From positions 1 through 64,000 of the forward strand of contig JBAZWP010000001.1 in the NCBI GenBank assembly GCA_041660345.1: a stretch of DNA of 64,000 nt, in the 5' to 3' direction. The position numbers and the translations under genes were made by a program. This document shows positions 2,717-55,622 of the stretch, one piece after another. The stretch is from Minisyncoccota bacterium (GTDB lineage Bacteria; Patescibacteriota; Minisyncoccia; Phycocordibacterales; UBA9973). The notes beneath the pieces were generated by a model that searched no databases, was not told where the DNA came from, and worked only from the letters and a program-made list of their open reading frames with translations. The stretch's first letter is position 1. Each line of letters starts with the position of its first letter.

Positions 2717-2792
2717 TACAAATAGTAATTTAGGTAGGGCTGATAAAAAAGAAGTTAAACAAAATATAGATATAAAGAAGAAGGAAAAAATT

Positions 2793-39706: not shown

Positions 39707-40288
39707 TTATTTTGTAAAAGATGCTATAAGTATTGTCTCTAGGTCGTCAGCTTCATCTTCTACTACATATATTGAAATAAGCTTATCCATTGATGTATAG
39801 TATTCAGTTAAAAAAGTATTACCAGATTCAATTACACATCGTTCTAAATGGTATAAAGCCTCTTTTATACTCTTCTCATGCGAAGGCTGCATCTTAGATA
39901 TATTTCGATTTAAAAGTTTAGATGTTCTACCAGCCTCGAGAATCATCTTATTTTCATCATGGTTTTTATCCATTAGATATCTTCGTACTAAATTAATACA
40001 ATCAAGTGTTTCAGTATCTCTTTGCTTTTCATCCAAATACTTCTTAAATAAGTACTCCAAGGACTCTAAATTGAATTTCATAAGGGTTGGTTTGAGTAAT
40101 ACACCGGAAGCCCATACAGCACCTTTTAAACCAATCAGGCGACATATCTTGCTAATATCAATACTGACATTTTCCATCATTCTATTACTAAAGACGTCTT
40201 CAATTCTGTCATAATAGCTTGTTGTAGAGAAAGGCAATTCCTTTAAAGTTTTAAGGCAAATTTCATTTTCATATTTATTGTTTAGCAC
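39707..40288 (-). CDS. hypothetical protein
   Basis: 193-aa ORF. Confidence 0.3.
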   Translation of the reverse strand: MLNNKYENEICLKTLKELPFSTTSYYDRIEDVFSNRMMENVSIDISKICRLIGLKGAVWASGVLLKPTLMKFNLESLEYLFKKYLDEKQRDTETLDCINLVRRYLMDKNHDENKMILEAGRTSKLLNRNISKMQPSHEKSIKEALYHLERCVIESGNTFLTEYYTSMDKLISIYVVEDEADDLETILIASFTK

Positions 40289-40484
40289 TCTTTTTCTCCT
40301 TTTTTGAGATTTCTAATCCTGTTTCAACATCAATTACTTTACCTAGACATGGGCAAGGTAAAGTTATACCAGGTCCATTATAATTTCTTTTTAATACGCC
40401 CATACCATTACATTCTCTTTTAACGCACTGTGATTTAGGCATATGTTCAACTTCGTACCATTTACTTCTAATATATGCTTTCAT
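40275..40484 (-). CDS. Cys-containing small protein
   Basis: 69-aa ORF. Confidence 0.25.
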   Translation of the reverse strand: MKAYIRSKWYEVEHMPKSQCVKRECNGMGVLKRNYNGPGITLPCPCLGKVIDVETGLEISKKEKKSAKQ

Positions 40485-40510
40485 ATATTAAATATACACT
40501 TATTTAGATT

Positions 40511-40816
40511 TTAATTTAACTTTGCTTTAACTAATGATTGTCTAAAACTATCCTGTAAAACTTTACCACACCATAATCCTTTTTTTCGATTACTTACTTT
40601 ATGTGTTTTAGGATTAAGATATAAGTCTTCACCAGCTTTATACTTTAACCTTTTATCACAGTCTAATTCACAACTAGTAGCTTGATAAACTATACCTTCT
40701 TTTGTATAAAATCCGATCCACTTTTCATATATACCCATTTTACCTATTTTATTTTCAGGTAAATGTGGAATCATAATAGTATAATACAAAGCTGTTTTTG
40801 ATAATATATTACTCAT
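40511..40816 (-). CDS. hypothetical protein
   Basis: 101-aa ORF. Confidence 0.3.
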   Translation of the reverse strand: MSNILSKTALYYTIMIPHLPENKIGKMGIYEKWIGFYTKEGIVYQATSCELDCDKRLKYKAGEDLYLNPKTHKVSNRKKGLWCGKVLQDSFRQSLVKAKLN

Positions 40817-41262
40817 ATTTCTATTTCTATAGAGCGTCTTTCGACAATAGTTATTTCATATTTTGAAGGAAGAATTTCTAAAATGTCTTTTGCTCTTAAA
40901 TTATTATTTTTAAAGAGCTTATTAGCTAATCTTATTAAAGTAGCTTTGTCACATTTTTCAAATATTTCAGAAAAGTTATCTAGGAAATATTCACATTCAG
41001 GTTCATTAACTATAGACTCTAAGATAGGAACAGCGTCTAGTCCAAGCTGTAATAAATCAGACGACGCTTTAACAAGCCTGTCAGCATTACCTTTTTCCCT
41101 AAATTCTTTTATTTCGGGTATTCTTAGGATGGGTTCACTTTCTGTTATAAATTGAATACCTGAACGATGACCATAATAAATTGCATCTTTTTTAATAGCA
41201 TTCATTAAATCATTAGCTTTTTCTTCATTAGACTTAAATAAGCTTTTCAAAAATTTTAACAT
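40813..41262 (-). CDS. hypothetical protein
   Basis: 149-aa ORF. Confidence 0.3.
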   Translation of the reverse strand: MLKFLKSLFKSNEEKANDLMNAIKKDAIYYGHRSGIQFITESEPILRIPEIKEFREKGNADRLVKASSDLLQLGLDAVPILESIVNEPECEYFLDNFSEIFEKCDKATLIRLANKLFKNNNLRAKDILEILPSKYEITIVERRSIEIEI

Positions 41263-41280
41263 TATTTCTCCTCATCAAGT

Positions 41281-42159
41281 TTAAAACTTAGTTGACACCG
41301 TACCACCTATATACACACTTTTTAAATCTGTGTTAATAGTTGGTGAAATATATGTATCATGTAATAAACTTGTAAAGTTAATCAAATTAAATCCAATAGG
41401 TGTGATTGCTAAATAGACACCTTTATCATTAAAATCTTTAATAAATCCTTTAGATGCACCAATTCCTAATAATGATATTGATTCAGGTTGTAATACTTTA
41501 GCGACAAATTCAGGCCACGCTAATGTGACATCGAATATATTAACATAAATATTTGCAGAATTAGGAAAGGAAACGCCACCCATTAATGTAGGATTAAACA
41601 AGAGTAGATCAACGTTCTTTTGAACTTGCATATCCGTGATCTTAATGGGTAGCTTGTTTCCTTTATCATCTAATTCATATATTTCAGCTATAGTGTACTC
41701 AGCTGGCATATAAGGAAATCGACTATGCTTTGTAGTGTATATGTTTTCTCTAAACTTTTGATTTAAAGTATAATCAACATAACCTGTTGCAGCATCAGCA
41801 TACCCTTTTATATGAAAATCACTGAATGTTAATGAAGTTGGTGGGCACTTATTGTCTACACATTGACCTGATACATTTTGAGTTATAACTTGAGGCTTAC
41901 CATAATAAGTACTTTCAGCTTCGATATAGATTATCTTATCGATTGTTGCATTATACTTATCTGCAATATCTTGAATCTCTTTAGGTAATTTCCCTAATAA
42001 ATAAACAGGCTTATCTTTTACAATAGTATAAGTGCTTTCACCATATATAGGTTCAGGCTTATGGTCATAAAATATATAATAAACTAATCCAATATTCACT
42101 ACAACTGATAGTATAGTAAAACCTAACCAATATAAAAATGTATCACTTTTTATTTCCAT
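41281..42159 (-). CDS. N-terminally membrane-anchored hypothetical protein
   Basis: 292-aa ORF with TM helix WLGFTILSVVVNIGLVYYIF. Confidence 0.35.
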   Translation of the reverse strand: MEIKSDTFLYWLGFTILSVVVNIGLVYYIFYDHKPEPIYGESTYTIVKDKPVYLLGKLPKEIQDIADKYNATIDKIIYIEAESTYYGKPQVITQNVSGQCVDNKCPPTSLTFSDFHIKGYADAATGYVDYTLNQKFRENIYTTKHSRFPYMPAEYTIAEIYELDDKGNKLPIKITDMQVQKNVDLLLFNPTLMGGVSFPNSANIYVNIFDVTLAWPEFVAKVLQPESISLLGIGASKGFIKDFNDKGVYLAITPIGFNLINFTSLLHDTYISPTINTDLKSVYIGGTVSTKF

Positions 42160-42179
42160 ATATATGGTATTTTTAGCAA

Positions 42180-42398
42180 CTACTTAACCATTTTATTACT
42201 TATATCAGTAAATACACTAATCATTTCTTTTAATAAAACCTCTTGTCGATAATGTCTAACACACTCAAAGCATAATTGTTGCTTATCTTTATTATAGATA
42301 ATATCAAATTTATTCTTTAAGCATATCATACAACGATGATCACCACCTTGTGAAAATTCCCATTTCTCATTCCCTATCATAACAACATCATTAAACAT
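42180..42398 (-). CDS. Cys-containing small protein
   Basis: 72-aa ORF. Confidence 0.25.
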   Translation of the reverse strand: MFNDVVMIGNEKWEFSQGGDHRCMICLKNKFDIIYNKDKQQLCFECVRHYRQEVLLKEMISVFTDISNKMVK

Positions 42399-42399
42399 G

Positions 42400-42837
42400 T
42401 TAGCTCTTCTTACTTATTTGTTTTAAGTTTAGTTCTAGTTTATATAGTATACTATCGTGGTCACCTTTAATTTTAATAATAGCTTTCTTAAGGTCTTTTA
42501 GTAATGGTTTTTTATTATGATACTCGTACGCTGTATGCCAAGCACTACCATTATTACAATTATTTAATACACACTCATGACACTTATGAGAGTTATTACT
42601 TCCACTATAATGAAATGAACATAGTGGACATGTGCTATCTCTACAACCTAATTCCCAACTATCATTATCTATACATTCATCACTAGGATTATTTTGAAGC
42701 CACTTTATATAACTAATAATAAGTGCTATATCACCATCTTTTTTATTATGATACTTATATGTGTAATGAAGTAATTTATCGTATACGATTGGGTATTTAT
42801 CTGAAAGTTCTTCTATTCTTTTTATAAATTCATTCAT
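42400..42837 (-). CDS. Cys-rich SYIKWxQN-family protein (paralog 3 of 4)
   Basis: ISYIKWLQNNP...STCPLCSFH motif; tandem with paralog 4. Confidence 0.4.
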   Translation of the reverse strand: MNEFIKRIEELSDKYPIVYDKLLHYTYKYHNKKDGDIALIISYIKWLQNNPSDECIDNDSWELGCRDSTCPLCSFHYSGSNNSHKCHECVLNNCNNGSAWHTAYEYHNKKPLLKDLKKAIIKIKGDHDSILYKLELNLKQISKKS

Positions 42838-42839
42838 AA

Positions 42840-43307
42840 TTAATCCTTTACTAATTTCTTTAATATTTTTTCTGTCTTATTGATAAGCGCACGATGCTTT
42901 ATAGGTTTAATTTTACAAATAAACTCTTCTAATTTTTTAATCAAAACTCTTTTGTTATTATTATATTGTATTTCTGTCCAATGATTTAATTTATTACCAG
43001 TTTTAAAGTCTGTTTCAGTACAACAGCTAACTAAAGGGCAACTATTACATCTATAACTGATTTTAGAAAAAGAATTACCGTGAACAGCGCATAATGGGCA
43101 GCTGCGTTCATTACAACCAAGCGTCCATGTTCCACCACCTAAAAGGTTTATACTTCTTTTATATTTATTTTGTAACCATTTTACATAGCTTAAAATAAGT
43201 GCAGTGTCTTTATCTTTAAGATCGCTATATATATAATCTATTAAGTAACCTTCGTCTAAACGATACTTTTTTGAAAGCAACTTAATCTTAGTTATAAATT
43301 CATTCAT
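42840..43307 (-). CDS. Cys-rich SYIKWxQN-family protein (paralog 4 of 4)
   Basis: LSYVKWLQNKYK...RSCPLCAVHG motif. Confidence 0.4.
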   Translation of the reverse strand: MNEFITKIKLLSKKYRLDEGYLIDYIYSDLKDKDTALILSYVKWLQNKYKRSINLLGGGTWTLGCNERSCPLCAVHGNSFSKISYRCNSCPLVSCCTETDFKTGNKLNHWTEIQYNNNKRVLIKKLEEFICKIKPIKHRALINKTEKILKKLVKD

Positions 43308-43308
43308 T

Positions 43309-43563
43309 TTATTTTTCCTCGAATGCGGATAGTACTATATCTGTTCTAGATACTACCACATATTTTTTTTGAATACCATCCACTTCAATTAATACATGAT
43401 ATTCTTCACCAGCTTCTAAATCGCCTGAGTAATGGTTTTGTACCCAATCTTCTATAGCTTTATAGATATAAACATCAAAAGGTGATTCAACTTCAATATT
43501 GTGCCAGCTATCCCAGCTGTCTTCTACTTCCCAATCGATACCTATTTTAATTTGTTTATTCAT
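43309..43563 (-). CDS. hypothetical protein
   Basis: 84-aa ORF. Confidence 0.3.
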   Translation of the reverse strand: MNKQIKIGIDWEVEDSWDSWHNIEVESPFDVYIYKAIEDWVQNHYSGDLEAGEEYHVLIEVDGIQKKYVVVSRTDIVLSAFEEK

Positions 43564-43564
43564 T

Positions 43565-43813
43565 TTACACGCTTATATACGAATAATACCACGCAACATA
43601 ACCTAATCCAACTAAAATAAAACCAAATACTGCAACACATGTTAGTATATCTATAAATTCCATAGTAAATTTAACCTTACCCTCTTTTACATCATCACAA
43701 ATTACACATATACCAAAGCATATAAACATTAAGAAAAACCCAAGTGGATTTTGAAGTGTAAAACAAAATGCTAACCCACCAAAAAAAGCCGCATTACCTA
43801 CTCTATCAACCAT
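43565..43813 (-). CDS. small two-TM membrane protein (holin-like topology)
   Basis: 82-aa ORF with two hydrophobic helices. Confidence 0.3.
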   Translation of the reverse strand: MVDRVGNAAFFGGLAFCFTLQNPLGFFLMFICFGICVICDDVKEGKVKFTMEFIDILTCVAVFGFILVGLGYVAWYYSYISV

Positions 43814-44001
43814 AAATTCGCCCTCATTTTATTTTTTACATCTTCTATTATTAAATTACGTGCTTCATATAATGTTAATGTTATAGGATATACTATATCA
43901 AACGCACACCAATTAATGCAAAATGAATATGTAATACCATTAATATTATGGTAGCTTATACCACACCAGTCTAAATGGCATCCTATACATTTATCACTCA
44001 T
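43798..44001 (-). CDS. Cys/Trp-rich small protein
   Basis: 67-aa ORF. Confidence 0.25.
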   Translation of the reverse strand: MSDKCIGCHLDWCGISYHNINGITYSFCINWCAFDIVYPITLTLYEARNLIIEDVKNKMRANLWLIE

Positions 44002-44471
44002 CTCTTTTTCCTTTCCATCATTTTTACCACTTCATCAGGGACTATATCTTTAAGTGAACCACCGAAGTGAAATATTTCCTTAGCTGCAGTTGAACTAATA
44101 TAAGAGTATGCTGGATCTGTCATTATAAATATTGTTTCAATATCTTTATCTAGTTTTTTATTTATAAAAGACATGGTTGATTCAAATTCAAAATCAGCTA
44201 TAGAGCGCATGCCACGAATTAATATTGTAGCATTATGCTTTTTTGCAAGGTTAACTAAAAGCTCGTCTGATATTACAACTTCTATATAAGGCATACACCT
44301 TTTAATTATATCTACCCTTTCTTCAGGAGAGAAAAAGCATTTTTTACTAATGTTTTGAGCAACTGCTATAATAAGTTTATCGCATATTCTCAATCCACGT
44401 TTGATAATTTCAATATGACCATATGTTAATGGGTCAAATGAGCCAGCGTATATTGCTATTTTTTCAGACAT
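43998..44471 (-). CDS. coaD: phosphopantetheine adenylyltransferase
   Basis: IAIYAGSFDPLTYGHIEII matches the CoaD (H/T)xGH nucleotidyltransferase motif; ATILIRGMRSIADFEFE aligns with E. coli CoaD ATVLIRGLRAVADFEYE; ISSTAAKEI matches ISSSLVKEV. Confidence 0.85.
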   Translation of the reverse strand: MSEKIAIYAGSFDPLTYGHIEIIKRGLRICDKLIIAVAQNISKKCFFSPEERVDIIKRCMPYIEVVISDELLVNLAKKHNATILIRGMRSIADFEFESTMSFINKKLDKDIETIFIMTDPAYSYISSTAAKEIFHFGGSLKDIVPDEVVKMMERKKR

Positions 44472-44476
44472 TTATA

Positions 44477-44977
44477 TCACCTATATACTACTACAATTTT
44501 ATTTGATAAATGCTTATCTAAAATTTCTTTTACTTTAGCGGCATCTAAAAAACCATAACCAATACCCGGAAATGGTAATATTGCTGGGATATTTAATTCT
44601 TTTAGTTCAACACAACTCTGCTCGATTATATCAATATCAGCAATACATGCGAATCCAGGCACCCTATCACCAATTTTATATTTATGTCTTTGGTGTGGTA
44701 CGACTTCATCTAAACTAGATATTAACCTAAACCTAGGTTTAACAGGGAACATTATTAAGTCGCTATTGATTATATTAACATGTGGGTCACCTTCTTGCAT
44801 TAGTATTGAACCAACTTTAAAAGTGAGCCCTGGATACTTCTGGGATGCTTCATAAGCACATCCTCGACCCATAACAGCTTCACCATTCTTTTTAACAAAG
44901 CCATTAATGGTTATACAAGCATGTATCTTAAGCTTATCTTTTAAATCCCATAAGTCATGTTTTACGTATTGAGGCAC
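44477..44977 (-). CDS. macro-domain-like protein (putative ADP-ribose binding/processing)
   Basis: N-terminal ...ITINGFVKKNGEAVMGRGCA... glycine-rich motif typical of macro-like folds; assignment moderate. Confidence 0.4.
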   Translation of the reverse strand: MPQYVKHDLWDLKDKLKIHACITINGFVKKNGEAVMGRGCAYEASQKYPGLTFKVGSILMQEGDPHVNIINSDLIMFPVKPRFRLISSLDEVVPHQRHKYKIGDRVPGFACIADIDIIEQSCVELKELNIPAILPFPGIGYGFLDAAKVKEILDKHLSNKIVVVYR

Positions 44978-44979
44978 AA

Positions 44980-45267
44980 CTAATACTCACTACCGCTTTC
45001 ACATTTTTTCATTTCATTTTTAAATTGACAACTAACTGAATTTGGATCACTTGCTCTAACAATATAACAAATAACCTCATCGTTTTCATATCGCATTATT
45101 TCTGTATCTTCTAGAAAATTAGAATCTATACTAGCGACTATTTCTGTTTTGCCATTTAATTTATTTTCAGGTGATGTTGGTGTACTTGTTTGAATAGTAC
45201 AAGACATTAAAAACCAAACAGTAAGTAATGCTGCAGCTACTATTACTGTATCAACAAATTTTGTCAT
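44980..45267 (-). CDS. putative lipoprotein
   Basis: Signal peptide with lipobox-like LMSC (LLTVWFLMSCT). Confidence 0.4.
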   Translation of the reverse strand: MTKFVDTVIVAAALLTVWFLMSCTIQTSTPTSPENKLNGKTEIVASIDSNFLEDTEIMRYENDEVICYIVRASDPNSVSCQFKNEMKKCESGSEY

Positions 45268-45458
45268 TTTACTTTCTCCTTTTCAAGAAACGTTAAGCTA
45301 CCAAATACAACTACATTTGTATCTTTAAAGTCTTCTTTAAGTGCTTGTAAATTTTCAATAATAAATTCTAATTTAACATCCTGAGATGTTAAAGTAGTTA
45401 TGAAATTATACGTGTCTGGAATTACTTCTTTCTCAACCGTGTCGATATGTTCGTCCAT
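45264..45458 (-). CDS. hypothetical small protein
   Basis: 64-aa ORF. Confidence 0.25.
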   Translation of the reverse strand: MDEHIDTVEKEVIPDTYNFITTLTSQDVKLEFIIENLQALKEDFKDTNVVVFGSLTFLEKEKVK

Positions 45459-45711
45459 TTGATTTCCCTTTTAATGAAATTATATAGTCATCAACTGTAG
45501 AGCCACTAACGCTAATTGTAGAGTTTGGTATTTCATATTTATATGTACGTGCATCCTTAGAAGTTGTTGTTATACTGTGGTCATAAGAAATAAATCTTAG
45601 TTCATTATTTTCTAGTCGCACCTTAACACTTAAACCATCTTCTAAGTCTTGCTTTAATTTATCGAAGATTAGTTTAAGCTTTTTATACTTTTGCTTATAG
45701 CTTTCTTTCAT
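45433..45711 (-). CDS. hypothetical protein
   Basis: 92-aa ORF. Confidence 0.25.
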   Translation of the reverse strand: MKESYKQKYKKLKLIFDKLKQDLEDGLSVKVRLENNELRFISYDHSITTTSKDARTYKYEIPNSTISVSGSTVDDYIISLKGKSNGRTYRHG

Positions 45712-45914
45712 TTGTTTTCTTTAATACACTTTTTACATCTCTCTACTTGACCGTAATCCATATCACCTATAATTTCATGTGAAAAAGTCAAGTTTATTTT
45801 ATATAGCATACATAAAGGATTAACGTCTTTATAATCTAATTCAGGGCAGATATCCTTACAAAATCCTTTTAAATATTTTATCTTATGCGTCTTAGTGACA
45901 TTTTTAGTTGTCAT
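45708..45914 (-). CDS. Cys-containing small protein
   Basis: 68-aa ORF. Confidence 0.25.
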   Translation of the reverse strand: MTTKNVTKTHKIKYLKGFCKDICPELDYKDVNPLCMLYKINLTFSHEIIGDMDYGQVERCKKCIKENK

Positions 45915-47005
45915 TGTAATCCTTTCACTCCATCAATAATTTGTTTAATGCTTCTTAATGCACGAATAGACTCATCTTCTCGAATGATTTCTGCACTTGA
46001 TAATGAGCCATAGTGTTCTTCAAGACAGTTTAATAACAGTTCTTTAATTCTTTTTTCGTCAGGACCATATGGTAAACGCTTTGTTTCAATAGCGTTATGA
46101 TACATCCTTTCTAATTCAAGTTCTTTTTCTTTATACCAAATTTCAACATCTTCAATAGAGCGTTCGCCTCGACGAATTGTTTTAAGCTGTTCTCTATTTC
46201 GCTCAAGGTCAAGCGTTCCTTCGATAAGGATTTGTTCACATTCTAATGCAAGTCTTACAACATGATATAAAAACTTAACATCAAACCCTATTATCTTTAC
46301 TTGTTCAGCTCGTTTAGATCCTTCAACAGTTCTTTGATATAAATTTTTATACGCTTCTATATCAATATCATTAAGGTGGCTAAGTACTTGAATAGTACCA
46401 CGCTTTTCAAATTCAGATTGAACTTCACTTAATTGTAATGTATGTGGGATAAGCTTATCACCTTCAAATTCTATTAATTCGTTTAATCCTTCATGTTCTT
46501 TATCTTTAGCCTTATGAAGTTGGCTATGTGCATATCCTTTGAATTTTTGGAATGAACCAGCATGTAAGAAGATATGTCGATTTTCGCGTACCATTTCACC
46601 GACTCGTGTAATGTGAAGAATACAACGAGGTGGTACAAATAAAAGGTCAACCATGTTGGGGTTATTTTCCATACAAAGTTGGAAGCATCTTACAATACCA
46701 TACATTGTGAAGTCGTATTTTCTTTTTTCGTCCTTATTGACAACATGATGCTGTTGCCATGGATCTTTTTTATGTTCTTCTTCCTCTTTTTTCTTTGACC
46801 CAAATCCATTAATAACTCCAGCAGTATGCGGGAAAACAATGTATTTAGGTGGAATATAAAACCCATTAACATCCATATCGGACGTATCATCACTTACACC
46901 GTAGCTAACTGAACCTACAATAGCTTCGTAGGCGATGCTACCAGGAATATATGATGGTGGGTTAATTAACCCAAGCTTCTGAATTCGTTGTACTGTCGAT
47001 GGCAT
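45911..47005 (-). CDS. Pol-beta superfamily nucleotidyltransferase
   Basis: GSVSYGVSDDTSDMDV matches the GS-x(9-13)-DxD minimal nucleotidyltransferase motif; 364 aa. Confidence 0.5.
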   Translation of the reverse strand: MPSTVQRIQKLGLINPPSYIPGSIAYEAIVGSVSYGVSDDTSDMDVNGFYIPPKYIVFPHTAGVINGFGSKKKEEEEHKKDPWQQHHVVNKDEKRKYDFTMYGIVRCFQLCMENNPNMVDLLFVPPRCILHITRVGEMVRENRHIFLHAGSFQKFKGYAHSQLHKAKDKEHEGLNELIEFEGDKLIPHTLQLSEVQSEFEKRGTIQVLSHLNDIDIEAYKNLYQRTVEGSKRAEQVKIIGFDVKFLYHVVRLALECEQILIEGTLDLERNREQLKTIRRGERSIEDVEIWYKEKELELERMYHNAIETKRLPYGPDEKRIKELLLNCLEEHYGSLSSAEIIREDESIRALRSIKQIIDGVKGLQ

Positions 47006-47151
47006 AGTTTAGTCCTTTTAGTTTGAGCTTCTCGAATTTTATTAATGTGATTTTCAATAGCCCTATTAAGTCTATTATCGACAAAAAGGGGTATTGGTTC
47101 ACCTTTTAAAGCTCTGTGAGCGAAAAATTTAATTTTACCATATCTCATAAT
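46966..47151 (-). CDS. hypothetical small protein (start uncertain)
   Basis: The track start at 47166 lies inside the promoter -10; ATG at 47151 (MRYGK) is the first possible start downstream of the promoter. Confidence 0.2.
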   Translation of the reverse strand: MMRYGKIKFFAHRALKGEPIPLFVDNRLNRAIENHINKIREAQTKRTKLCHRQYNEFRSLG

Positions 47152-47157
47152 GCATGT

Positions 47158-47186
47158 AATATACAATAAAAAAAGTAAAATGTCAA
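47158..47186 (-). promoter_or_regulatory. consensus sigma70 promoter cassette (TTGACA-17-TATATT)
   Basis: Minus-strand TTGACA 47181-47186, TATATT 47158-47163. Confidence 0.5.
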
Positions 47187-47428
47187 GCTGTTTTTTTAAA
47201 TATCCAATGAGCTATTATTTGACCATGACATCTTAAATTATCTAATGATTGGTCTTTATCATGTAATTCAAAATTACCACAGTAACATGACATTATTAAG
47301 AAATTGTTTTGTTTATAGCTTTCAATTAATTGCGATATATCAATCTTATTGTATTGCACAGCTTGATAATAAAGTTTTAAACTTTCACTTAATGTATATA
47401 CTTTAGTGGTGTACTTAGACTTTCTCAC
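47183..47428 (-). CDS. hypothetical protein
   Basis: 81-aa ORF. Confidence 0.3.
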   Translation of the reverse strand: MRKSKYTTKVYTLSESLKLYYQAVQYNKIDISQLIESYKQNNFLIMSCYCGNFELHDKDQSLDNLRCHGQIIAHWIFKKTA

Positions 47429-47668
47429 TGGATAGGGGTTACCATAAATAGATGGTCTTCCAATATAAATAACGGGAGGTGTTATATTAAAACCAGAATT
47501 TATAATTTTAATAATAAGAAACTCTTCTCGTCTTTTTCTATTAATGCTTTAATATCGTTAAGTACACCAAACATTTTTAGATATTCATCAATATCTAATT
47601 CTTCATATGAATTTAAATATCTGCGTATTAGTTCAATAGCATTTTTTAATTCTTCATGTTCTGTCATG

Positions 47669-47956
47669 CTAACTTTCGCGTATTATATTACATAATTCAT
47701 TATTATTATGTTTAGTATAATATTTCTCTACTGGTGAGAGCATTTCTTCAAAGATACTACTAGCAATAACTGCAAGTTCATCTTCAGTTGTATAATTATA
47801 ATTATCCCTAGCTTGTTTTATAGCTTCTTTTCCTTTTAATATAATGCTATCCTTAATATCTATTTTAGTTTTAGGTTTAGGTTTAGCTATAGTTTTAGGT
47901 TTAGCTTTAGTTTTAACAGCTTTAGTCTTAGTTGTAGTAGTCTTAGTTTTATTCAT
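47669..47956 (-). CDS. Lys/Thr-rich histone-H1-like small protein
   Basis: N-terminal TTTTKTKAVKTKAKPKTIAKPKPKTK tract encoded by ggtttag-type DNA repeats. Confidence 0.35.
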   Translation of the reverse strand: MNKTKTTTTKTKAVKTKAKPKTIAKPKPKTKIDIKDSIILKGKEAIKQARDNYNYTTEDELAVIASSIFEEMLSPVEKYYTKHNNNELCNIIRES

Positions 47957-47968
47957 TTTATACCTTTC

Positions 47969-49219
47969 TTATGTTCCATGTTCCCAATTATTTAAATAAT
48001 GCTCTTGCTCTTCAGTTAACTCGTCTATATCAATTTCCATAGCATCTAATTTAAGTTTAGCTATTTCTTTATCTAATTCAATAGGCATGCGATAAACCTT
48101 TTTCATTAGTGTGTGGTGATTATTAACTAAATAGATAGCTGCCATTACTTGATTTGCAAACGACATATCCATAACCGCAGATGGATGACCCTCAGCAGAT
48201 GCTAAATTAATAAGTCGACCCTCTCCTAATATATTAATTTTAATACCTGTTTTTAAAGTATATTCAACATTATTATCACGAATTACTCTTTTAAATTTAG
48301 TCATCTTTTCAAGAGCTTCAAGATTTAACTCAACATTAAAGTGACCACTATTTGCTACCATAGCACCATTTTTCATATTAGAAAACTCACCCATATCTAT
48401 TACATTAATATTGCCGGTAACTGTGCAGAAGAAGTCGCCAATTCTAGAAGCTTCTCTTATTGTCATTACTTCAAACCCATCCATAACAGCTTCTAATGCC
48501 TTAATAGGATCAATTTCAGTAATAATAACACGAGCACCTAAACCTTTAGCTCTCATAGCGATACCTTTACCGCACCAACCATAACCACAAACAACAAATA
48601 TGGAACCAGCTAATAATCTGTTAGTTGCTCTTATAATACCGTCGATTGTACTTTGACCTGTGCCGTATCGATTATCAAAAAGATGTTTAGTATCTGCGTC
48701 ATTAACCGCTATTACTGGATATTTTAACGCATCTTCTTCTTCCATTGCACGTAATCTAATAACCCCAGTAGTTGTTTCTTCAGTACCACCTAGAACTTTA
48801 CTTAAATCAAAATCCTTATGTAATGTTGTTAATAAGTCAGCGCCATCATCCATAGTAATATGTGGTTCACTTTCTAATGCATCAAATATATGTCTATAAT
48901 AGATATCTGAATTTTCACCTCTTATAGCATAAACGGGTATTTCCATATCTCGAACAATGGAAGCTGCAACATCGTCCTGAGTTGATAATGGATTAGATGC
49001 ACATAATACTACATTAGCACCAGCGATCTTTAGTGTTTCAACAAGATTAGCAGTTTCAGTTGTAACATGCATGCAAGCTGCAATATTAATATCCTTAAGT
49101 GGTTTATAAGCACCATATCTTCCTTTAAGCAGATTTAATACCGGCATATCTTGTGCTGCCCATTGAATTCTTAGTCTACCTTTATCTGCGATATGAATAT
49201 CTTTTATATCACATTTCAT
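47969..49219 (-). CDS. ahcY: S-adenosyl-L-homocysteine hydrolase
   Basis: 416 aa; [12 protein letters not shown]...MPVL N-terminus and NAD-binding [10 protein letters not shown] Rossmann motif typical of AdoHcyase; 4-nt overlap with metK. Confidence 0.85.
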
Positions 49220-50385
49220 AATCCAGCTTCCCTTCTTATTAATTGTACTTTATCATCCTTTTCCCATGTAAATTCTAATTCAGTTCGTCCAAAATGACCA
49301 TAATTACTTGTAAGACTATAAATAGGTCTTAGTAAATCTAATGTCTGAATAATACCAGCTGGTTTTAAGTTAAATAAACCTTTTATAATAGCTATTATTC
49401 TACTTTCTTCAATTTTACTTGTACCAAATGTATTAACATTAACTGAAATAGGTTCTGGGTATCCTATAGCGTATGATAGTTGTACTTCACATTCACTTGC
49501 TAATTTTGCCATTACAATATTCTTAGCAATATAACGAGCCATGTAGCTTGCAGACCTATCTACCTTTGATGGATCTTTACCACTAAATGCACCTCCACCA
49601 TGTCTACCGCTTCCACCATAAGTATCAACAATGATTTTTCGACCTGTTAAACCAGTATCACCATGAGGACCACCTATTTCAAATTTACCTGTCGGGTTAA
49701 TAAAGTACTTAGTATTTTCTAATAGCTTACTTGGTATTACTTTTTTAATTACATGTTCTATAACGCCTTCTTTTAATGTTTCATACTTAACATCTGGTGT
49801 ATGCTGCGTACTTAAAACTATTGTATCGATATATACAGGTTTACTATTAATATATTTGAATGTTACTTGTGATTTACCGTCTGGTCTAATGAAGTATAAG
49901 TCTTTATTTTTTCTAATTTTTGTAAGTTGTTTGGTTAAAAGGTGTGCATAATAAATCGGTGCAGGCATATATACATCTGTCTCATTACAGGCGTAACCAA
50001 ACATCATGCCTTGATCACCAGCACCCTGTTCTTTATATAAACCATCTCCTTCTGTTACACCCTGACTAATATCATCGGATTGTTTGTCTAAAGTAACTAT
50101 AACTCCGCATGATTTATAATCAAACCCTGTATCAGGATCGTCATAACCAATATCTTTAATTGTATCTCTAACTATTTTTTGAATATCTAATTGTGCTCTT
50201 GAAGTTATTTCACCTGCTACTACAACTAATCCTGTTGTTACAAGTGTTTCACATCCAACACGCGATTTAATATCTACCTTTAAACATTCATCTAAAATAG
50301 TGTCAGATATTTTATCGCAAATCTTATCTGGGTGTCCTTCGGTAACGGACTCACTAGTAAATAAAAAATCTTTACCTTTTTTCAT
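49216..50385 (-). CDS. metK: S-adenosylmethionine synthetase
   Basis: [20 protein letters not shown] signature, [16 protein letters not shown] and DTYGG motifs. Confidence 0.9.
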
Positions 50386-50392
50386 ATTCTCC

Positions 50393-50674
50393 TTACCATT
50401 TAAAGGGTACTTTTCTAGACTTAATTGTTTGAGTTTTATCTTCTTTAATATTATTTTCTTTTCTTAATCGTTCAATTTCTTTGTACATTTTACCCATTAT
50501 TTCATTATAGCACTTATGACAAACTTGAACGCTTTCTTCCCTACCTGATACTTTGTTACCACTTTCATCAATATAACCACTAATATTATCATTATCAGCT
50601 ATATGACACAAATAGTTTATTGTATTAAAACTATTTATTTCTTTTTCACAGGTATCACAAAAATATTTAATCAT
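50393..50674 (-). CDS. zinc-ribbon small protein
   Basis: CDTCEK...CHKCYN. Confidence 0.3.
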
Positions 50675-50913
50675 ATTTGGTTTTCATCTCTTTTAATTAC
50701 GTTTAAGAAATCAACTTTTTTAGGTTTAGATACATCTGATTTTCTTAATAACAATTCTTCTCTAACCAATCTTTTTATTGTTTCTATTTCAGATGACGCT
50801 TTTTTTTCAAAAGCACTTTTTCTTAAATCAATACCTTTAAAATATAAATTTTCTCTATTCATTTTTATTCCGATTAATAACTGAATTAATTGACATATCT
50901 CTTTCTTTACCAA
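50671..50913 (-). CDS. hypothetical small protein
   Basis: 80-aa ORF. Confidence 0.25.
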   Translation of the reverse strand: MVKKEICQLIQLLIGIKMNRENLYFKGIDLRKSAFEKKASSEIETIKRLVREELLLRKSDVSKPKKVDFLNVIKRDENQI

Positions 50914-51895
50914 TTGCTTTAGTTGGTTTTGGTTTAGACTTCGGTCTCTTCTTCTGTTTTCTGCCCCTAGTATTAAAGTTTTCAGTTACATACATCTCTG
51001 AATCACTCACTACACCCTTGAAAAATTCACCAATTGGGTCTTCACCACCACGCTCAACTATTCTCGGGTCTAATTTATGGTATGTTCTTACTTTCTTATA
51101 TTTATTTTGATGCTTAGGTTGTACTGTATGGTTTCTAACAGGGTATGGGTTACCCTTCATATCAAATAGTGTCCAACCACCTCTTGTATTTTCGTTATTA
51201 GTTTGTGATTCAGGTTCTTCTTCTATATTTTTATACTTATCAATAAGGTCAATACACTTATCGCCCCAATTATCAGGTGGTTCATCTAAAACTAATTTTT
51301 TACGCTGAATTCTTTTTAAGGTCTTAATGTAATTTCGATTACCATATTTATCTAATAACCATGTCTTCCAAAATGCGTACCATACTTTAAATTCATTTAG
51401 GTAATCATCTTTTGAAATTATTCGCATATCACCACGAAGACTTCTTTCAAAATTTACCTTATAGTTAGCTGTTAAATGAATTAGTTGCATTAATTTATCT
51501 TCGCGTTCTCTTATATCTTTTAAAACACTATCAGGAACAGCACTACAATGCTTTTCTAAATAATTTATATTATAATTAGCTATCTCTATAGCTATAAATA
51601 TATCTATTTCAGACATATCTGTAGGGTCTACATCATCTAAGTATGAATGTTTAAGTTTGTAGCGCTCCATAGCATTATCATCAATATATAATACGACAGA
51701 TTTAGCTACATTATTTGCATATTGTTTGGCGTATTCTTTTAAACCATTTTTAAATTTACGAGTATCTTCTTTAGAAAGACCACCTGACTTTTTAATTGCA
51801 TCTAATGGTGTTAAAATTTCCCCGTTACTTTTTGTACTACACGCAATTTTAGTACATAATTCTGCATCTAATTTTTTAAAACTTTTATAGCTCAT
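50855..51895 (-). CDS. hypothetical protein with basic C-terminal tail
   Basis: 346-aa ORF ending in RGRKQKKRPKSKPKPTK. Confidence 0.35.
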   Translation of the reverse strand: MSYKSFKKLDAELCTKIACSTKSNGEILTPLDAIKKSGGLSKEDTRKFKNGLKEYAKQYANNVAKSVVLYIDDNAMERYKLKHSYLDDVDPTDMSEIDIFIAIEIANYNINYLEKHCSAVPDSVLKDIREREDKLMQLIHLTANYKVNFERSLRGDMRIISKDDYLNEFKVWYAFWKTWLLDKYGNRNYIKTLKRIQRKKLVLDEPPDNWGDKCIDLIDKYKNIEEEPESQTNNENTRGGWTLFDMKGNPYPVRNHTVQPKHQNKYKKVRTYHKLDPRIVERGGEDPIGEFFKGVVSDSEMYVTENFNTRGRKQKKRPKSKPKPTKAIGKERDMSINSVINRNKNE

Positions 51896-53055
51896 ATTTC
51901 TTGATATACAAAATTTTTATTTTGAAAGTTAGTCATTTCTACTTTATTATTTGAATAATTAAAGAAATCTGGATTAATTGGTATTTTACCACCACCGCCA
52001 GGCGCATCTATAACAAATGATGGTATAGCATAACCACTTGTATGACCACGTAAACCTTTTATAATATCGATACCATCCTGAACTTTAGTCCTAAAGTGTG
52101 CCGATCCCGTAATGGGATCACATTGATAGATGTAATAAGGTCTTACGCGTCTTATTAAAAGCTTATGCATTAATGATTTCATTGTTTCTATATCGTTATT
52201 TATACCTTTTAATAGTACAGTTTGGCTACCCAATACTATCCCAGCATTAGCTAGCATATCACAAGCATTCTTATTCTCAATTGTGCATTCATCTGGGTGT
52301 GTAAAATGAACCGACATATAAACAGGATGATACTTTGAAATCATTTTAACAAGTGTTGGCGTGATTCTTTGAGGTAAAACAACAGGTATCTTAGTTCCTA
52401 TGCGAATTATCTCAATATGTGGTATATTTCTTAAACTTTTTAACAGATACTCCAAATGTTCATTGGAAAGTGTTAATGGATCACCACCTGAAAGTATCAC
52501 ATCTCGAATCTGGGGCGTTTTCCTTATGTAGTTGATAGATTCGTCCCAATTCGCTATATTAATCGTCTGGTGGTTACCTACAGCTCGACTGCGTGTACAA
52601 AAACGACAATATGATGAGCATATACCAGTCGTTAAGAATAACGCACGGTCTGGATACCTATGTACAATTCCTTCACAAGGTGAAGTTAAATCCTCTGATA
52701 ATGGGTCGTCTGACTCATTATTTCCTTGTATGAACTCATTACAAGTGGGTATCATCGTAGACCTTAGTTTATTATCATATATCAGTGACATATAATAAGG
52801 CGTTACAGCAAAAGGTAGGATATATTTACTATTTAAAAAGGCGGATTCTTCGTTATGTGATAGTCTTGTAATCCTTTTTAACTTTTCAAGTGTGGTAATT
52901 CTATTTTTAAATTGCCACTTCCAGTCGTTCCATTCTCTAAGTGATATATCTGAGTAAAATTGTTTTTTAAAATTGTAAGTTTTGGTATTTATACTTGGAG
53001 GTTTCTCATCAACCTCACCTTTAATAAGTGATTCAGCACATTCAGCAACTTCCAT
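51892..53055 (-). CDS. lysine 2,3-aminomutase-like radical SAM enzyme
   Basis: CSSYCRFCTRS (CxxxCxxC) radical-SAM cluster motif plus ILSGGDPL motif typical of the KamA/EpmB family. Confidence 0.8.
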   Translation of the reverse strand: MEVAECAESLIKGEVDEKPPSINTKTYNFKKQFYSDISLREWNDWKWQFKNRITTLEKLKRITRLSHNEESAFLNSKYILPFAVTPYYMSLIYDNKLRSTMIPTCNEFIQGNNESDDPLSEDLTSPCEGIVHRYPDRALFLTTGICSSYCRFCTRSRAVGNHQTINIANWDESINYIRKTPQIRDVILSGGDPLTLSNEHLEYLLKSLRNIPHIEIIRIGTKIPVVLPQRITPTLVKMISKYHPVYMSVHFTHPDECTIENKNACDMLANAGIVLGSQTVLLKGINNDIETMKSLMHKLLIRRVRPYYIYQCDPITGSAHFRTKVQDGIDIIKGLRGHTSGYAIPSFVIDAPGGGGKIPINPDFFNYSNNKVEMTNFQNKNFVYQEI

Positions 53056-53100
53056 TTTATTCCTTTCATGAATAGATGTTATTAAAGTTCGATTAAGAAA

Positions 53101-53493
53101 TTATATATTAGAAAGCGATTGCATTATAGCGCTAGCTTGGGCTTTATCTGTACACATGAATTTAGCATTAACATCAACCGTGAAATATTTATTAAACTCA
53201 TCTCCAGTAACGGTTATACTTGTAATATTTTCTTTTGCTAATACAGGCTTATATCTTTCTTTAAAAACATAGTCACTAAGCACTTGTGTAGTGCTATCTG
53301 TAAGCACTATCCAATCATTTAAATCAACAAGTAAATTTGAATGACTTAATTCAAATGACTTATCACTAACCGGTGTAATATACATTGCACGTTCGCTTAG
53401 AAATTTGAATAATTTCTCAAAGTCACCAGTCCACTGAAAAGCGTCAAATTCTTTTTTAGATATATATTTCATTTTAATCCTCTCATATACCAT
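53101..53493 (-). CDS. hypothetical protein
   Basis: 130-aa ORF. Confidence 0.3.
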   Translation of the reverse strand: MVYERIKMKYISKKEFDAFQWTGDFEKLFKFLSERAMYITPVSDKSFELSHSNLLVDLNDWIVLTDSTTQVLSDYVFKERYKPVLAKENITSITVTGDEFNKYFTVDVNAKFMCTDKAQASAIMQSLSNI

Positions 53494-54440: not shown

Positions 54441-54443
54441 ATT

Positions 54444-54707
54444 TTACTCCATCTTAGGTAGTATATAATACCATAAGTTTGATTGATGTAAATCGTGGCC
54501 AGGTTGTTCTATATAACTCATTTCACCCATTAAATTAACTATGTAACCTTTAGCAATATGCCATCGTTTATCAGCAGTGAATCTACCATTATACACATCT
54601 TGATAATTTATAAAAGTACTTGTAACGTCTTTTATTTCAAAAAACCATACTGCACAGTCATCATCGCCATTTGGTTTTATAATTGCAAGATTTAATAATT
54701 CAACCAT
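54444..54707 (-). CDS. hypothetical protein (paralog of 57090..57332)
   Basis: LLNLxxxKPNxDDxCAVWF...TADKRW shared motif. Confidence 0.35.
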   Translation of the reverse strand: MVELLNLAIIKPNGDDDCAVWFFEIKDVTSTFINYQDVYNGRFTADKRWHIAKGYIVNLMGEMSYIEQPGHDLHQSNLWYYILPKME

Positions 54708-55620: not shown

Positions 55621-55622
55621 TA

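Follow-up and report, generated by a model that had tools for sequence, protein, structure and literature searches.

The cluster at positions 43998 to 47005 of the window (the whole stretch of 64 kb that was analysed) encodes three proteins of known kind, namely a nucleotidyltransferase (NTase) of the RlaP family, a macrodomain of the DarG2/TARG1 type and a canonical phosphopantetheine adenylyltransferase (CoaD, PPAT). These are best explained as three functionally separate genes in one phage accessory island, which forms a piece of a long co-directional block of accessory genes of a tailed phage; the probability of this explanation as a whole was put at about 60 %. The contig was phage-like, with a G+C content of about 30 %, and may represent an integrated prophage. 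The ORF boundaries given in the preliminary description of the cluster were confirmed, with all cluster ORFs on the minus strand. Neighbouring ORFs in the cluster were separated by gaps of 5 and 2 bp or overlapped by 4 to 26 bp, and such close packing was general across a minus-strand block of 46 kb rather than particular to the cluster genes.

The contig was deposited at NCBI as a Candidatus Paceibacterota MAG, and it carries coaD, metK and ahcY, which are typical cellular genes. This might suggest a true Candidatus Paceibacterota (CPR) chromosome on which the cluster genes serve cellular housekeeping or defence, but such an origin is very improbable: the contig encodes a tail sheath protein and an HNH endonuclease, most of the scanned ORFs had no family match, genes were packed on a single strand over 46 kb, and neither tRNA genes nor any ribosomal or other core genes were found in the window. 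Furthermore, the closest relatives of the NTase and macrodomain genes were located on viral contigs, and a Paceibacterota-labelled contig from one study (L292) was identical to an IMG/VR viral contig (L133).

The NTase (364 aa; 45911–47005, minus strand), whose ATG start codon is preceded by an AAAGGA ribosome-binding site, matched the RlaP family PF10127 (5.7e-16, 59.4 bits against a cut-off of 23) and phrog_388 (1.5e-42). Five residues, G31, S32, D43, D45 and D98, were invariant across 58 homologues. The nucleotidyltransferase call made earlier from the G31-S32 and D43-x-D45 motifs was thus upheld, with D98 supplying the third invariant carboxylate, whereas the protein is not ‘minimal’ as had been proposed: it belongs to the RlaP family, and its AF2 model (pLDDT 93.4) comprises an N-terminal NTase domain followed by a large helical C-terminal domain. 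No good structural match was found in the copy of the PDB that was searched, the best Foldseek E-value being 4e-3. Identity as a CD-NTase was rejected in view of the PF10127 match, with no PADLOC or SMODS-type hit and with cGAS appearing in the fold search only at E ≈ 0.3.

Tested bacterial (Pseudomonas) members of the RlaP family extend RNA 3′ ends by one to two nucleotides (PMC12776372), and in jumbo phages RlaP and RNA ligase are co-distributed (PMC7824862). By homology to the Pseudomonas enzymes, the window protein would add one to two nucleotides, without a template, to the 3′-OH of RNA damaged by nucleases, in the typical case tRNA that anticodon nucleases of the host have trimmed. An RNA ligase of 201 aa is encoded at 21475–22080 on the minus strand (PF09414, 4e-8, 34 bits against a cut-off of 27; phrog_548 ‘RNA ligase’, 2.2e-13). 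It probably works as a partner of the RlaP NTase, though it lies 24 kb away and outside the cluster, and could rejoin the extended RNA so that it becomes functional again. Searches of the 64-kb window yielded no gene for polynucleotide kinase, 2H or RtcB.

Four small minus-strand ORFs separate the NTase and macrodomain genes, so that the former is not two genes upstream of the latter, as had been described. These comprised a Cys-rich ORF of 68 aa (45708–45914) which overlaps its neighbours by 4 bp at both ends and whose sole family match was a weak one to phrog_32384 (0.006), two ORFs of 92 aa (45433–45711) and 64 aa (45264–45458) for which no family match reached the cut-off, and an ORF of 95 aa (44980–45267). 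The last of these has a hydrophobic segment at its N terminus and, after it, Cys23 (…FLMSC), and on the sole basis of these features it is possibly a lipoprotein; it had no match in Pfam, PHROGs, NCBIfam or PADLOC and no homologue in the fetched viral loci.

The macrodomain protein (166 aa, GTG start; 44477–44977, minus strand) gave no match in Pfam, NCBIfam or PADLOC when searched as a single sequence. Its AF2 model (pLDDT 97.2) nevertheless identified a true macro fold, as had been suspected from the sequence: DarG macrodomains and TARG1 ranked first in a Foldseek search of the PDB (6e-7 to 2e-5). A profile of the family matched DarG of Mtb (2.8e-15), DarG of Taq (3.3e-13) and TARG1 (8.5e-10) among PDB sequences, and hhalign aligned the family with phiKZ gp104 (AdfM) at 98.9 % probability (E 3e-17). 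N25, K80 and the G138/G140/G142 loop were conserved, whilst the protein departed from the family consensus in a 26-residue insertion after K80 and at three near-invariant positions (W109F, C139I and W146A). The product is therefore classed as a stand-alone, predicted ADP-ribosyl hydrolase of the DarG2/TARG1/AdfM type, which would bind ADP-ribose and hydrolyse the bond between ADP-ribose and its substrate by means of Asn25 and Lys80. To our knowledge, the substrate specificity of a macrodomain cannot be read from its sequence. By analogy with AdfM of phiKZ, a DarG2-like phage enzyme that strips DarT2 ADP-ribose from DNA (PMC13309987), the likeliest substrate would be ADP-ribosyl-thymidine in single-stranded phage DNA that DarT2 toxins of the host have modified. 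No neighbouring gene family was common to more than eight of 81 macro-bearing loci (80 viral loci and L001), which fits a stand-alone mobile counter-defence gene.

The macrodomain might instead act with RlaP and the RNA ligase in RNA repair, leaving DNA untouched and clearing either ADP-ribose-1″-phosphate or ADP-ribose-1″,2″-cyclic phosphate formed during NAD-dependent removal of RNA 2′-phosphates, or ADP-ribose from RNA ends. Involvement of macrodomains in KptA/2H RNA repair has been described (PMC7824862, PMC9503650), and Poa1p was also matched by the macrodomain model in the fold search (4e-4). At the sequence level, though, the family matched DarG2, TARG1 and AdfM at 1e-9 to 1e-17, compared with 0.06 or weaker for macrodomains of the Poa1p/BT1257 type, and the scanned ORFs of the window included no KptA/Tpt1 or 2H gene. 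An RlaP gene adjoined the macrodomain gene in locus L038 (54-bp gap), RNA ligases occurred within 10 kb in 4–5 of the 80 macro-anchored loci, and in locus L058 the macrodomain homologue was followed by a homologue of window ORF 20850–21506, an ORF that overlaps the RNA ligase gene of the window; however, the four of 80 macro-anchored loci that had RlaP within 10 kb were, on a rough estimate, close to chance for two accessory genes of large phages and did not differ from the rate in CoaD-anchored loci. A role in RNA repair is rather doubtful compared with the removal of ADP-ribose from DNA.

CoaD (157 aa; 43998–44471, minus strand; ATG start preceded by an AGGTGA ribosome-binding site) was recognized correctly from the outset. 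It matched the equivalog-level model TIGR01510 (1e-51, 175 bits against a cut-off of 103.3) and 34 PPAT sequences of solved structure (1e-38 to 5e-26), the best being T. maritima PPAT 1vlh (1e-38), and it possessed all the invariant PPAT residues (T-x-G-H, K43, R86-x-x-R89, D93, E97 and S126-S127). Its nearest relatives, at about 50 % identity, were ordinary housekeeping bacterial CoaDs in an rsmD–coaD arrangement. The remark that CoaD is unusual in a phage also holds: matches were detected in just 69 of 50,697 phage records, several of them doubtful, although some jumbo phages do have an annotated CoaD, and only 112 stretches were confirmed in 2.9 million viral contigs. As a canonical PPAT the enzyme would convert ATP and 4′-phosphopantetheine to dephospho-CoA, and it may serve as an auxiliary metabolic gene supporting CoA supply during infection; the search of the 64-kb window detected neither coaE nor any other gene of the CoA pathway.

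The preliminary description had joined CoaD, the macrodomain and the NTase into one module for producing or breaking down a metabolite derived from adenine nucleotides or a second messenger of immunity, for example ADP-ribose derivatives, dephospho-CoA or the signals of CBASS and Thoeris. All three proteins bind adenine nucleotides, judging by family, and their genes are co-directional, closely packed and may share a promoter-like site, but close packing is the rule across the 46-kb minus-strand block. Linkage was examined in 160 related viral loci (80 macro-anchored and 80 CoaD-anchored), in none of which were the macrodomain and CoaD found within 10 kb of each other; within that range none of the 81 macro-bearing loci (80 viral loci and L001) contained CoaD, and none of the 80 CoaD-anchored loci contained a member of the macro family. 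One viral locus (L165) did contain a HIGH-family nucleotidyltransferase, a macrodomain homologue and RlaP within 6.5 kb, but the HIGH-family protein was not a PPAT, since it reached only E 9e-6 with the CoaD profile and had a cytidylyltransferase-like motif. With the NTase belonging to RlaP rather than to the CD-NTases, the module hypothesis was largely refuted by these linkage tests and is now most unlikely. The presence of both the macro fold and the third carboxylate means that the gene calls stand, broadly as first made, whereas the module does not. Two of the proteins, the DarG2/AdfM-type macrodomain and the RlaP RNA-repair NTase, could plausibly have an anti-defence character.

The genes would lie together as members of a common accessory island, possibly behind one promoter-like site (47186–47158), with no apparent shared metabolite. 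This minus-strand site, TTGACA-17-TATATT (47158–47186), agrees with the consensus at 11 of 12 positions, had the top score within 40000–51000 and lies upstream of the NTase gene, within a gap of 177 bp. As a consensus match only, it is a possible start of a transcription unit; promoter-like sites were not enriched in the region (53 found against 68.6 expected from shuffles).

For one pair of genes, full independence was weakened by a recurrence that the preliminary description had not argued. A PPAT passing TIGR01510 was located within 4 kb of RlaP in six other viral lineages and directly adjacent to it in two (L221 and L203). The gap between RlaP and CoaD was below 1.5 kb in five of nine lineages, the window included (p ≈ 0.006 against uniform spacing, a modest statistic that ignores relatedness). 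These RlaP-linked loci were diverse, with pairwise CoaD identities of at most 44 % and G+C contents of 0.39 to 0.62. A CCA-adding enzyme, RNA ligase, RlaP or PTH2, families confirmed with Pfam, was present within 10 kb in 22 of 80 CoaD loci compared with nine of 80 macro loci (p ≈ 0.008, again modest and taking no account of relatedness), whilst CoaD was nearby in none of 80 cellular RlaP loci, a viral versus cellular contrast with p ≈ 0.06 once duplicate contigs were removed. Cultured phages tended in the same direction: Kabachok has an annotated peptidyl-tRNA hydrolase gene immediately upstream of, and overlapping, its PPAT gene, and in Caulobacter phage C2 an RNA ligase gene lies about 2 kb from the PPAT gene.

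The link between RlaP and CoaD in large phages is suggestive, and it may reflect co-regulation or a connection that is not yet understood. Instead of simply boosting metabolism, CoaD could be tied functionally to the phage genes for tRNA/RNA repair and translation rescue. It might then provide dephospho-CoA with which phage transcripts are initiated in place of a canonical nucleotide, or replenish CoA pools upset by host tRNA-acting toxins. We regard this as unlikely. A link between PPAT and RNA repair has no known biochemical precedent and none appeared in the literature searched, and the clustering of accessory genes in large phages has regulatory causes. Moreover, the distance between RlaP and CoaD in Caulobacter phages is about 112 kb, and in locus L221 CoaD is directly followed by CoaE and a thioesterase-like gene, an arrangement indicative of ordinary CoA synthesis.

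Set against known systems, the cluster resembles the CD-NTases of CBASS and the phage NAD+ reconstitution pathways NARP1, NARP2 and NARP3 in general chemistry only, that is in nucleotidyl transfer and a role in phage–host conflict. The NTase lacks the CD-NTase signature of CBASS. NARP2 and NARP3 possess HIGH-superfamily adenylyltransferases, as does the cluster with CoaD, but the window CoaD scored 175 bits as a PPAT compared with at most 31 bits on any NMN adenylyltransferase model, and the window yielded no gene for NAMPT, Adps, Namat, PnuC or NadR. By comparison with bacterial CoaD (E. coli and T. maritima 1VLH), the protein is of the same length and retains every invariant residue, differing in being phage-encoded and in having no rsmD neighbour. 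The PPATs of the jumbo phages Caulobacter phage C2 (gp220c), Brevundimonas phage Kabachok and Myxococcus phage Mx1 likewise passed the TIGR01510 cut-off, although the window CoaD was only 27–32 % identical to those of cultured phages; unlike locus L221 with its CoaE, the window has no visible CoA-pathway partner.

The closest known counterparts of the window NTase, which matched PF10127 above the cut-off, are RlaP of P. fluorescens and P. aeruginosa and NrdC.11 of phage T4. The window protein keeps all three strictly conserved Asp residues and the arrangement of an N-terminal NTase domain with a C-terminal helical domain, and its phage carries an RNA ligase gene as well. The protein exceeds its homologues of around 300 aa by about 60 residues, its gene lies outside any RtcB/RtcA or RNA-ligase operon, and a macrodomain gene and coaD lie downstream of it within 1.4 kb. 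The macrodomain differs from DarG in lacking a DarT-binding C-terminal domain and from human TARG1 in having Gly at the position of Asp125; it is 26 % identical to AdfM and belongs to a different PHROG family (phrog_335). It nevertheless has the fold of AdfM, DarG2 and TARG1 together with clear sequence homology to them, resembles AdfM in being a phage protein of about 160 aa that stands alone, without a toxin partner, and has its catalytic Asn/Lys pair, N25/K80, in correspondence with N22/K80 of Taq DarG2 and the active-site N23/K78 of AdfM (PMC13309987).

All ORFs named in the preliminary description, which had read positions 43998–47005 as a possible adenine-nucleotide module of CoaD, macro-like protein and nucleotidyltransferase, were present. 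The first gene in the direction of transcription encoded a 364 aa nucleotidyltransferase (45911–47005), identified below as RlaP, and was followed by four small ORFs (68, 92, 64 and 95 aa; that description had called the 95 aa product a ‘lipoprotein’), a 166 aa macro-like ORF with a GTG start (44477–44977) and the 157 aa CoaD, or phosphopantetheine adenylyltransferase (PPAT; 43998–44471), all on the minus strand. The nucleotidyltransferase had been placed two genes upstream, which was wrong, as four ORFs intervene before the macro gene and CoaD is five genes downstream of it. Each of the three main genes was preceded by a plausible ribosome-binding site, and a strong sigma-70-like match (TTGACA-17-TATATT) lay in the 177 bp gap upstream of the nucleotidyltransferase gene; such matches showed no overall enrichment in the region. 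Just downstream of the cluster lay a pair of neighbouring Cys-rich paralogues, 145 and 155 aa in length (42400–42837 and 42840–43307, minus strand; 38 % identical, E 8e-27), with other small Cys-rich ORFs close by (42180–42398, 43798–44001 and 45708–45914); no family matches were found for the Cys-rich ORFs at or near 42180–45914.

The content of the window looked phage-like despite its deposition in a CPR bacterial MAG. The proteins were identical to those of a 64,167 bp contig deposited as a ‘Candidatus Paceibacterota’ MAG, and a cellular (CPR) origin was one of the rivals considered; the phage-like reading was preferred because of a 907 aa tail sheath protein, an HNH/HTH protein, an RNA ligase, many ORFs without any family match among those scanned, and the absence of tRNA genes from the window. 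The G+C content was approximately 30 %, and all genes between about 18 kb and 64 kb were on the minus strand, either separated by short gaps or overlapping at their start and stop codons. Positions 43500–47500 had no DNA-level relative by blastn among 50,697 phage records, which suggests that this phage is without a close sequenced relative. Two other contigs, both from one study (SO_2017_LW4) and labelled Paceibacterota and Shapirobacteria (loci L292 and L305), carried related RlaP genes, and L292 was identical to an IMG/VR viral contig (L133); they represent phages of CPR bacteria or else artefacts of binning. The contig also illustrates how phage DNA can be deposited under the name of a CPR bacterial MAG, and calls for caution in metabolic inferences on those organisms.

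Several other genes were recognized in the window. An 804 aa protein (29819–32233, minus strand) matched the shoulder domain of the eukaryotic Major Vault Protein (PF11978, 4e-30) and also Vault_3 and Band_7, which is unusual on a phage-like contig, and was followed by a 406 aa SPFH/Band_7 protein (32297–33517, minus strand; phrog_11908). One of 86 window ORFs matched the actin-like Volactin family (PF25216) at 2e-69; the carrier is probably the 361 aa ORF at 2700–3785 (plus strand), because that ORF gave a weak match to the DnaK nucleotide-binding domain (E 0.001). Upstream of the cluster, 47969–63000 (minus strand) was a dense block of metabolic genes comprising AhcY (47969–49219) and MetK (49216–50385), which overlap, a lysine-2,3-aminomutase-like radical SAM enzyme (51892–53055), a GDP-mannose-4,6-dehydratase-like enzyme (53469–54440), an R2K ATP-grasp enzyme (55814–56614), a HisF-like protein (58544–59473) and an RmlA-like NTP_transferase (62256–62993), all on the minus strand. 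Together these genes suggest a pathway of sugar or amino-acyl modification supported by a SAM cycle.

CoaD matched the NCBIfam equivalog TIGR01510 over the whole protein at 175 bits (cut-off 103.3, E 1e-51), compared with at most 31 bits for any NMN or NaMN adenylyltransferase model, and 34 PPAT sequences of known structure were matched with E values of 1e-38 to 5e-26. PPATs are marked by the T/HxGH motif of the HIGH superfamily and by residues that bind nucleotide and phosphate, in Escherichia coli numbering Lys42, Arg88, Arg91, Asp95, Glu99 and the ISS(S/T) motif. In an alignment of 20 bacterial and phage PPATs every invariant residue was kept in CoaD, and T16-Y-G18-H19, K43, R86, R89, D93, E97 and S126-S127 fell in invariant columns. 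From its family, the protein is predicted to convert ATP and 4'-phosphopantetheine to dephospho-CoA and PPi. Its closest relatives were approximately 50 % identical, and the two whose contigs were read (homologues P0220 and P0221, on contigs of ~64 kb) lay in housekeeping rsmD-coaD arrangements beside fatty-acid and ribosomal genes; both contigs were rejected as related phages, being ordinary bacterial chromosomal contexts. On account of its score, its invariant residues and the housekeeping contexts of its nearest relatives, CoaD looks like a captured cellular PPAT.

The earlier remark that CoaD is unusual in a phage was borne out. Matches were found in 69 of the 50,697 phage records, a set that includes doubtful short contigs and Microcystis phage MaAM05, and only 112 CoaD stretches were confirmed in the 2.9 million contigs of IMG/VR, so PPAT is rare in viruses and CoaD is a rare viral auxiliary metabolic gene; annotations of it already exist for jumbo phages of Caulobacter, Brevundimonas and Myxococcus. 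In Myxococcus phage Mx1 and Caulobacter phage C2, NAMPT and NMNAT genes are found close to the PPAT gene. For the window CoaD an NAD-salvage reading was rejected, as its PPAT score was over 140 bits above that of any NMNAT model and the window had no NAMPT gene. NARP3, which is made up of PnuC and NadR, was also discarded as unrelated. MaAM05 was left out as phage evidence: in this record (locus L087, MW495066.1 30400–42840) coaD lies among ribosomal protein genes, beside rplA, rplK, nusG, secE, a tRNA-Trp gene, trxB and ilvD, and the region looks like bacterial chromosomal DNA. Because of this neighbourhood, the PPAT published as an ‘auxiliary metabolic gene’ of MaAM05 (PMC8093824) may be an assembly artefact.

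The macro ORF as a single sequence gave no Pfam match at E values up to 0.1, the PF01661 Macro model included, no NCBIfam or PADLOC match and nothing useful against PDB sequences. It matched phrog_335 (labelled ‘phosphatase’) at 8e-12, a precomputed PF01661 match was recorded for four of the 97 homologues listed, and tblastn identified phage genes annotated ‘Appr-1-p processing’ or ‘ADP-ribose binding’ at 37–43 % identity. The AlphaFold2 model, built from a 79-sequence alignment (pLDDT 97.2), had the three-layer α/β/α fold and the ADP-ribose-binding cleft lined by Gly-rich loops that define a macrodomain, and the NGEAVMGRGCA and PGIGYG loops were conserved. All of its top PDB and viral fold matches were macrodomains, so that fold and profile searches upheld the initial macro call over an unrelated fold.

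Within the macrodomains, the evidence pointed to the DarG2/TARG1 clade. The top PDB fold matches were the DarG macrodomains of Mycobacterium tuberculosis and Thermus aquaticus and human TARG1 (6e-7 to 2e-5), with coronavirus and Poa1p macrodomains ranked lower. By profile scores the family was likewise nearer in sequence to DarG2/TARG1 than to other macro clades: the family profile matched M. tuberculosis DarG at 2.8e-15, T. aquaticus DarG at 3.3e-13, Thermosipho DarTG at 7.5e-12 and TARG1 at 8.5e-10, and other macrodomains at 0.06 or weaker. In hhalign it matched phiKZ gp104 with 98.9 % probability (E 3e-17). This phage protein is AdfM, for which removal of DarT2-placed ADP-ribose from DNA and protection of chimalliviruses were demonstrated in 2026, and its active-site pair N23/K78 corresponds to N22/K80 of T. 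aquaticus DarG2 (PMC13309987). The counterparts N25 and K80 were invariant in the 79 family members and kept in the window protein, K80 aligning with the Lys of DarG FPTKKHW; the catalytic Lys of TARG1 is K84. The second catalytic residue of TARG1, Asp125, was replaced by Gly (TARG1 GCGLD, family GCGNG, window GIGYG), as it is in DarG proteins. Peculiar to the window protein were an insertion of 26 residues immediately following K80 and substitutions at three positions that are near-invariant in the family. By analogy with these enzymes, it is predicted to remove ADP-ribose from thymidine in ssDNA and so to neutralize DarT2. Some family members were fused to an N-terminal domain that by eye resembled a SLOG/DprA-like Rossmann domain, with the motifs …ICGSRS…SGGASGVD… (locus L057, 4408–5352).

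The nucleotidyltransferase matched PF10127 (RlaP) at 59.4 bits (cut-off 23) as well as phrog_388; its homologues numbered over 2,700, and PF10127 was recorded for all 120 of those listed. G31-S32, D43, D45 and D98 were invariant, in agreement with the Pol-beta G[GS] motif and the three strictly conserved catalytic Asp residues by which RlaP is recognized (PMC12776372). The preliminary description would have given up its nucleotidyltransferase call if the further catalytic Asp/Glu downstream were missing; this residue was present as D98. Its suggestion of a CD-NTase or minimal nucleotidyltransferase gave way to the RlaP family. A CD-NTase (CBASS cyclase) identity was rejected because there was no PADLOC or Pfam signature of this kind (PADLOC matched none of 10 window proteins) and cGAS structures were matched only at E 0.3–0.4 (TM ~0.16). 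The AlphaFold2 model (pLDDT 93.4) had strands and helices at 24–132 and was all helical at 134–361; this N-terminal nucleotidyltransferase domain with a C-terminal helical domain agrees with the published PfRlaP crystal structure, the two being compared by description alone. As a single sequence the protein gave nothing useful against PDB sequences, and Foldseek against the PDB returned only weak generic Pol-beta matches (LinB, HalB and ANT(4'); E 4e-3 or weaker), which spoke against a cGAS-like fold but narrowed the function no further.

Two RlaP enzymes of Pseudomonas extend the 3'-OH of RNA by one or two NMPs, preferring damaged RNAs, and the proposal is that they replace, ahead of ligation, nucleotides lost to ribotoxins such as RloC (PMC12776372); in jumbo phages its distribution mirrors that of RNA ligases (PMC7824862). 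The window encoded an RNA ligase (21475–22080; PF09414, phrog_548) 24 kb from RlaP, and the scan of window ORFs turned up no gene for PNK, 2H, RtcB or Tpt1. In 80 related viral RlaP loci, an RNA ligase lay within 10 kb in nine and a CCA-adding enzyme in 14. Two ORFs near the window RNA ligase could be unrecognized repair components: 18990–19469 (phrog_20637), with homologues near RlaP in loci L159 and L166, adjoining an RNA ligase in L159, and 20850–21506, whose homologue in locus L058 immediately follows that of the macro gene; both are on the minus strand. A calcineurin-like metallophosphoesterase (36054–36791, minus strand; PF00149 2e-9, phrog_1649 4e-34), a homologue of which lay 2 kb from RlaP in locus L126, could serve an RNA-repair pathway as its end-healing phosphatase.

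Linkage between the main genes was assessed in up to 80 viral loci around relatives of each, in which profiles and tblastn were run over the anchor and the 10 kb to either side of it. The pairing of macro gene and CoaD, on which the preliminary description had laid stress, was not conserved at all: CoaD was found in none of the 80 macro loci and the macro family in none of the 80 CoaD loci. With the nucleotidyltransferase being RlaP and not a CD-NTase, the proposal of a single module acting on adenine-nucleotide-derived metabolites or signals is largely refuted. A further rival, held to be unlikely, gave the macrodomain a part in RNA repair. RlaP lay near the macro gene in four of the 80 macro loci, adjacent only in L038, and the macro family occurred in one of 80 viral and none of 80 cellular-genome RlaP loci. 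No conserved neighbour of the macro family emerged, no gene being common to more than eight of 81 loci.

RlaP and CoaD, on the other hand, recurred together. CoaD lay near RlaP in five of 80 viral loci (profile E ≤ 7e-13) compared with none of 80 cellular loci (p 0.03, or 0.06 with duplicates removed; uncorrected for relatedness), and RlaP near CoaD in six of 80 CoaD loci, which also held 2H (12), HD_4 (10), CCA-adding enzyme (eight), Nudix (eight), RNA ligase (seven) and PTH2 (four) genes, these neighbour families being confirmed in a Pfam check. A PPAT within 4 kb of RlaP was found in six other viral lineages (L222/L223, L099, L221, L203, L197 and L227), scoring 138–168 bits and passing the TIGR01510 cut-off; pairwise CoaD identity among the RlaP-linked loci was at most 44 % and their G+C content ranged from 0.39 to 0.62. 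The two genes were directly adjacent in L221 and L203, and the gap was below 1.5 kb in five of nine lineages (p ~0.006 against uniform spacing, uncorrected for relatedness). A CCA-adding enzyme, RNA ligase, RlaP or PTH2 gene lay within 10 kb in 22 of 80 CoaD loci compared with nine of 80 macro loci (p ~0.008, again uncorrected for relatedness). Weak CoaD-profile matches near RlaP in L120, L157/L158 and L165 were excluded as NadM-, NMNAT- or cytidylyltransferase-like by their motifs. L222/L223 and the window had in common the R2K ATP-grasp and GDP-mannose-dehydratase-like genes; in L222/L223 (7914–11104) RlaP, PTH2, R2K ATP-grasp and CoaD formed a compact string, with CoaD fused to a C-terminal domain of ~210 aa in which H..HD-like motifs were seen by eye.

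These placements raise a functional tie between CoaD and tRNA/RNA repair, which was not mentioned in the literature searched; the recurrence of CoaD among tRNA-maintenance genes is no more than suggestive, but is the sole lead here that could open up new biology. It seems unlikely that, in large phages, PPAT is an unrecognized part of islands for tRNA/RNA repair and translation rescue, its product serving that conflict; at the same long odds, such islands would also hold RlaP, CCA-adding enzyme, RNA ligase, PTH2, and 2H and HD hydrolases, and the RlaP–macro–CoaD run of the window would be one instance. Dephospho-CoA as a non-canonical 5' cap for phage RNAs is one possible role, and resupply of CoA against acetyl-CoA-dependent toxins acting on tRNA another. 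Against this tie, the statistics are modest and uncorrected for relatedness, RlaP and CoaD are ~112 kb apart in the Caulobacter phages, and L221 (8813–11489) points to ordinary CoA synthesis, as CoaD, next to RlaP, is followed there by CoaE (PF01121, 1e-46) and a thioesterase-like ORF; the thioesterase-like ORF and a P-loop kinase-like ORF that precedes this run of genes were recognized by eye. The placement can be tested cheaply in cultured PPAT phages, namely Caulobacter C2, Brevundimonas Kabachok and Myxococcus Mx1.

The best-supported reading is of a single phage accessory island in which three genes have functions separate from one another. The analysis shows the family membership, catalytic residues and folds of the main proteins, while their substrates and roles are inferred from characterized homologues. 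RlaP would repair RNA 3' ends together with the distant RNA ligase, the macrodomain would be an orphan ADP-ribosyl hydrolase of the DarG2/AdfM type, most likely countering DarT2-type DNA ADP-ribosylation, and CoaD would act as a canonical PPAT, as an auxiliary metabolic gene.

Each main gene is of a kind already known. The RlaP gene would add one more phage to the set with 3'-end RNA repair. The DarG antitoxin has a C-terminal DarT-binding domain and a DarT neighbour, whereas the window protein is a macrodomain only, its gene has CoaD and the 95 aa ORF as neighbours, and DarT/DUF4433 was not found among the window ORFs scanned. Lacking both the domain and the neighbour, it is an orphan, as AdfM is. 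Much of phrog_335 is annotated only as ‘phosphatase’ or hypothetical, and the link to DarG2 and AdfM is useful for its annotation. If the window macrodomain is an AdfM-like enzyme, orphan DarG2-type counter-defence genes extend well beyond the nucleus-forming jumbo phages, reaching the widespread phrog_335 members of N4-like, Shewanella, Aeromonas and uncultured phages.
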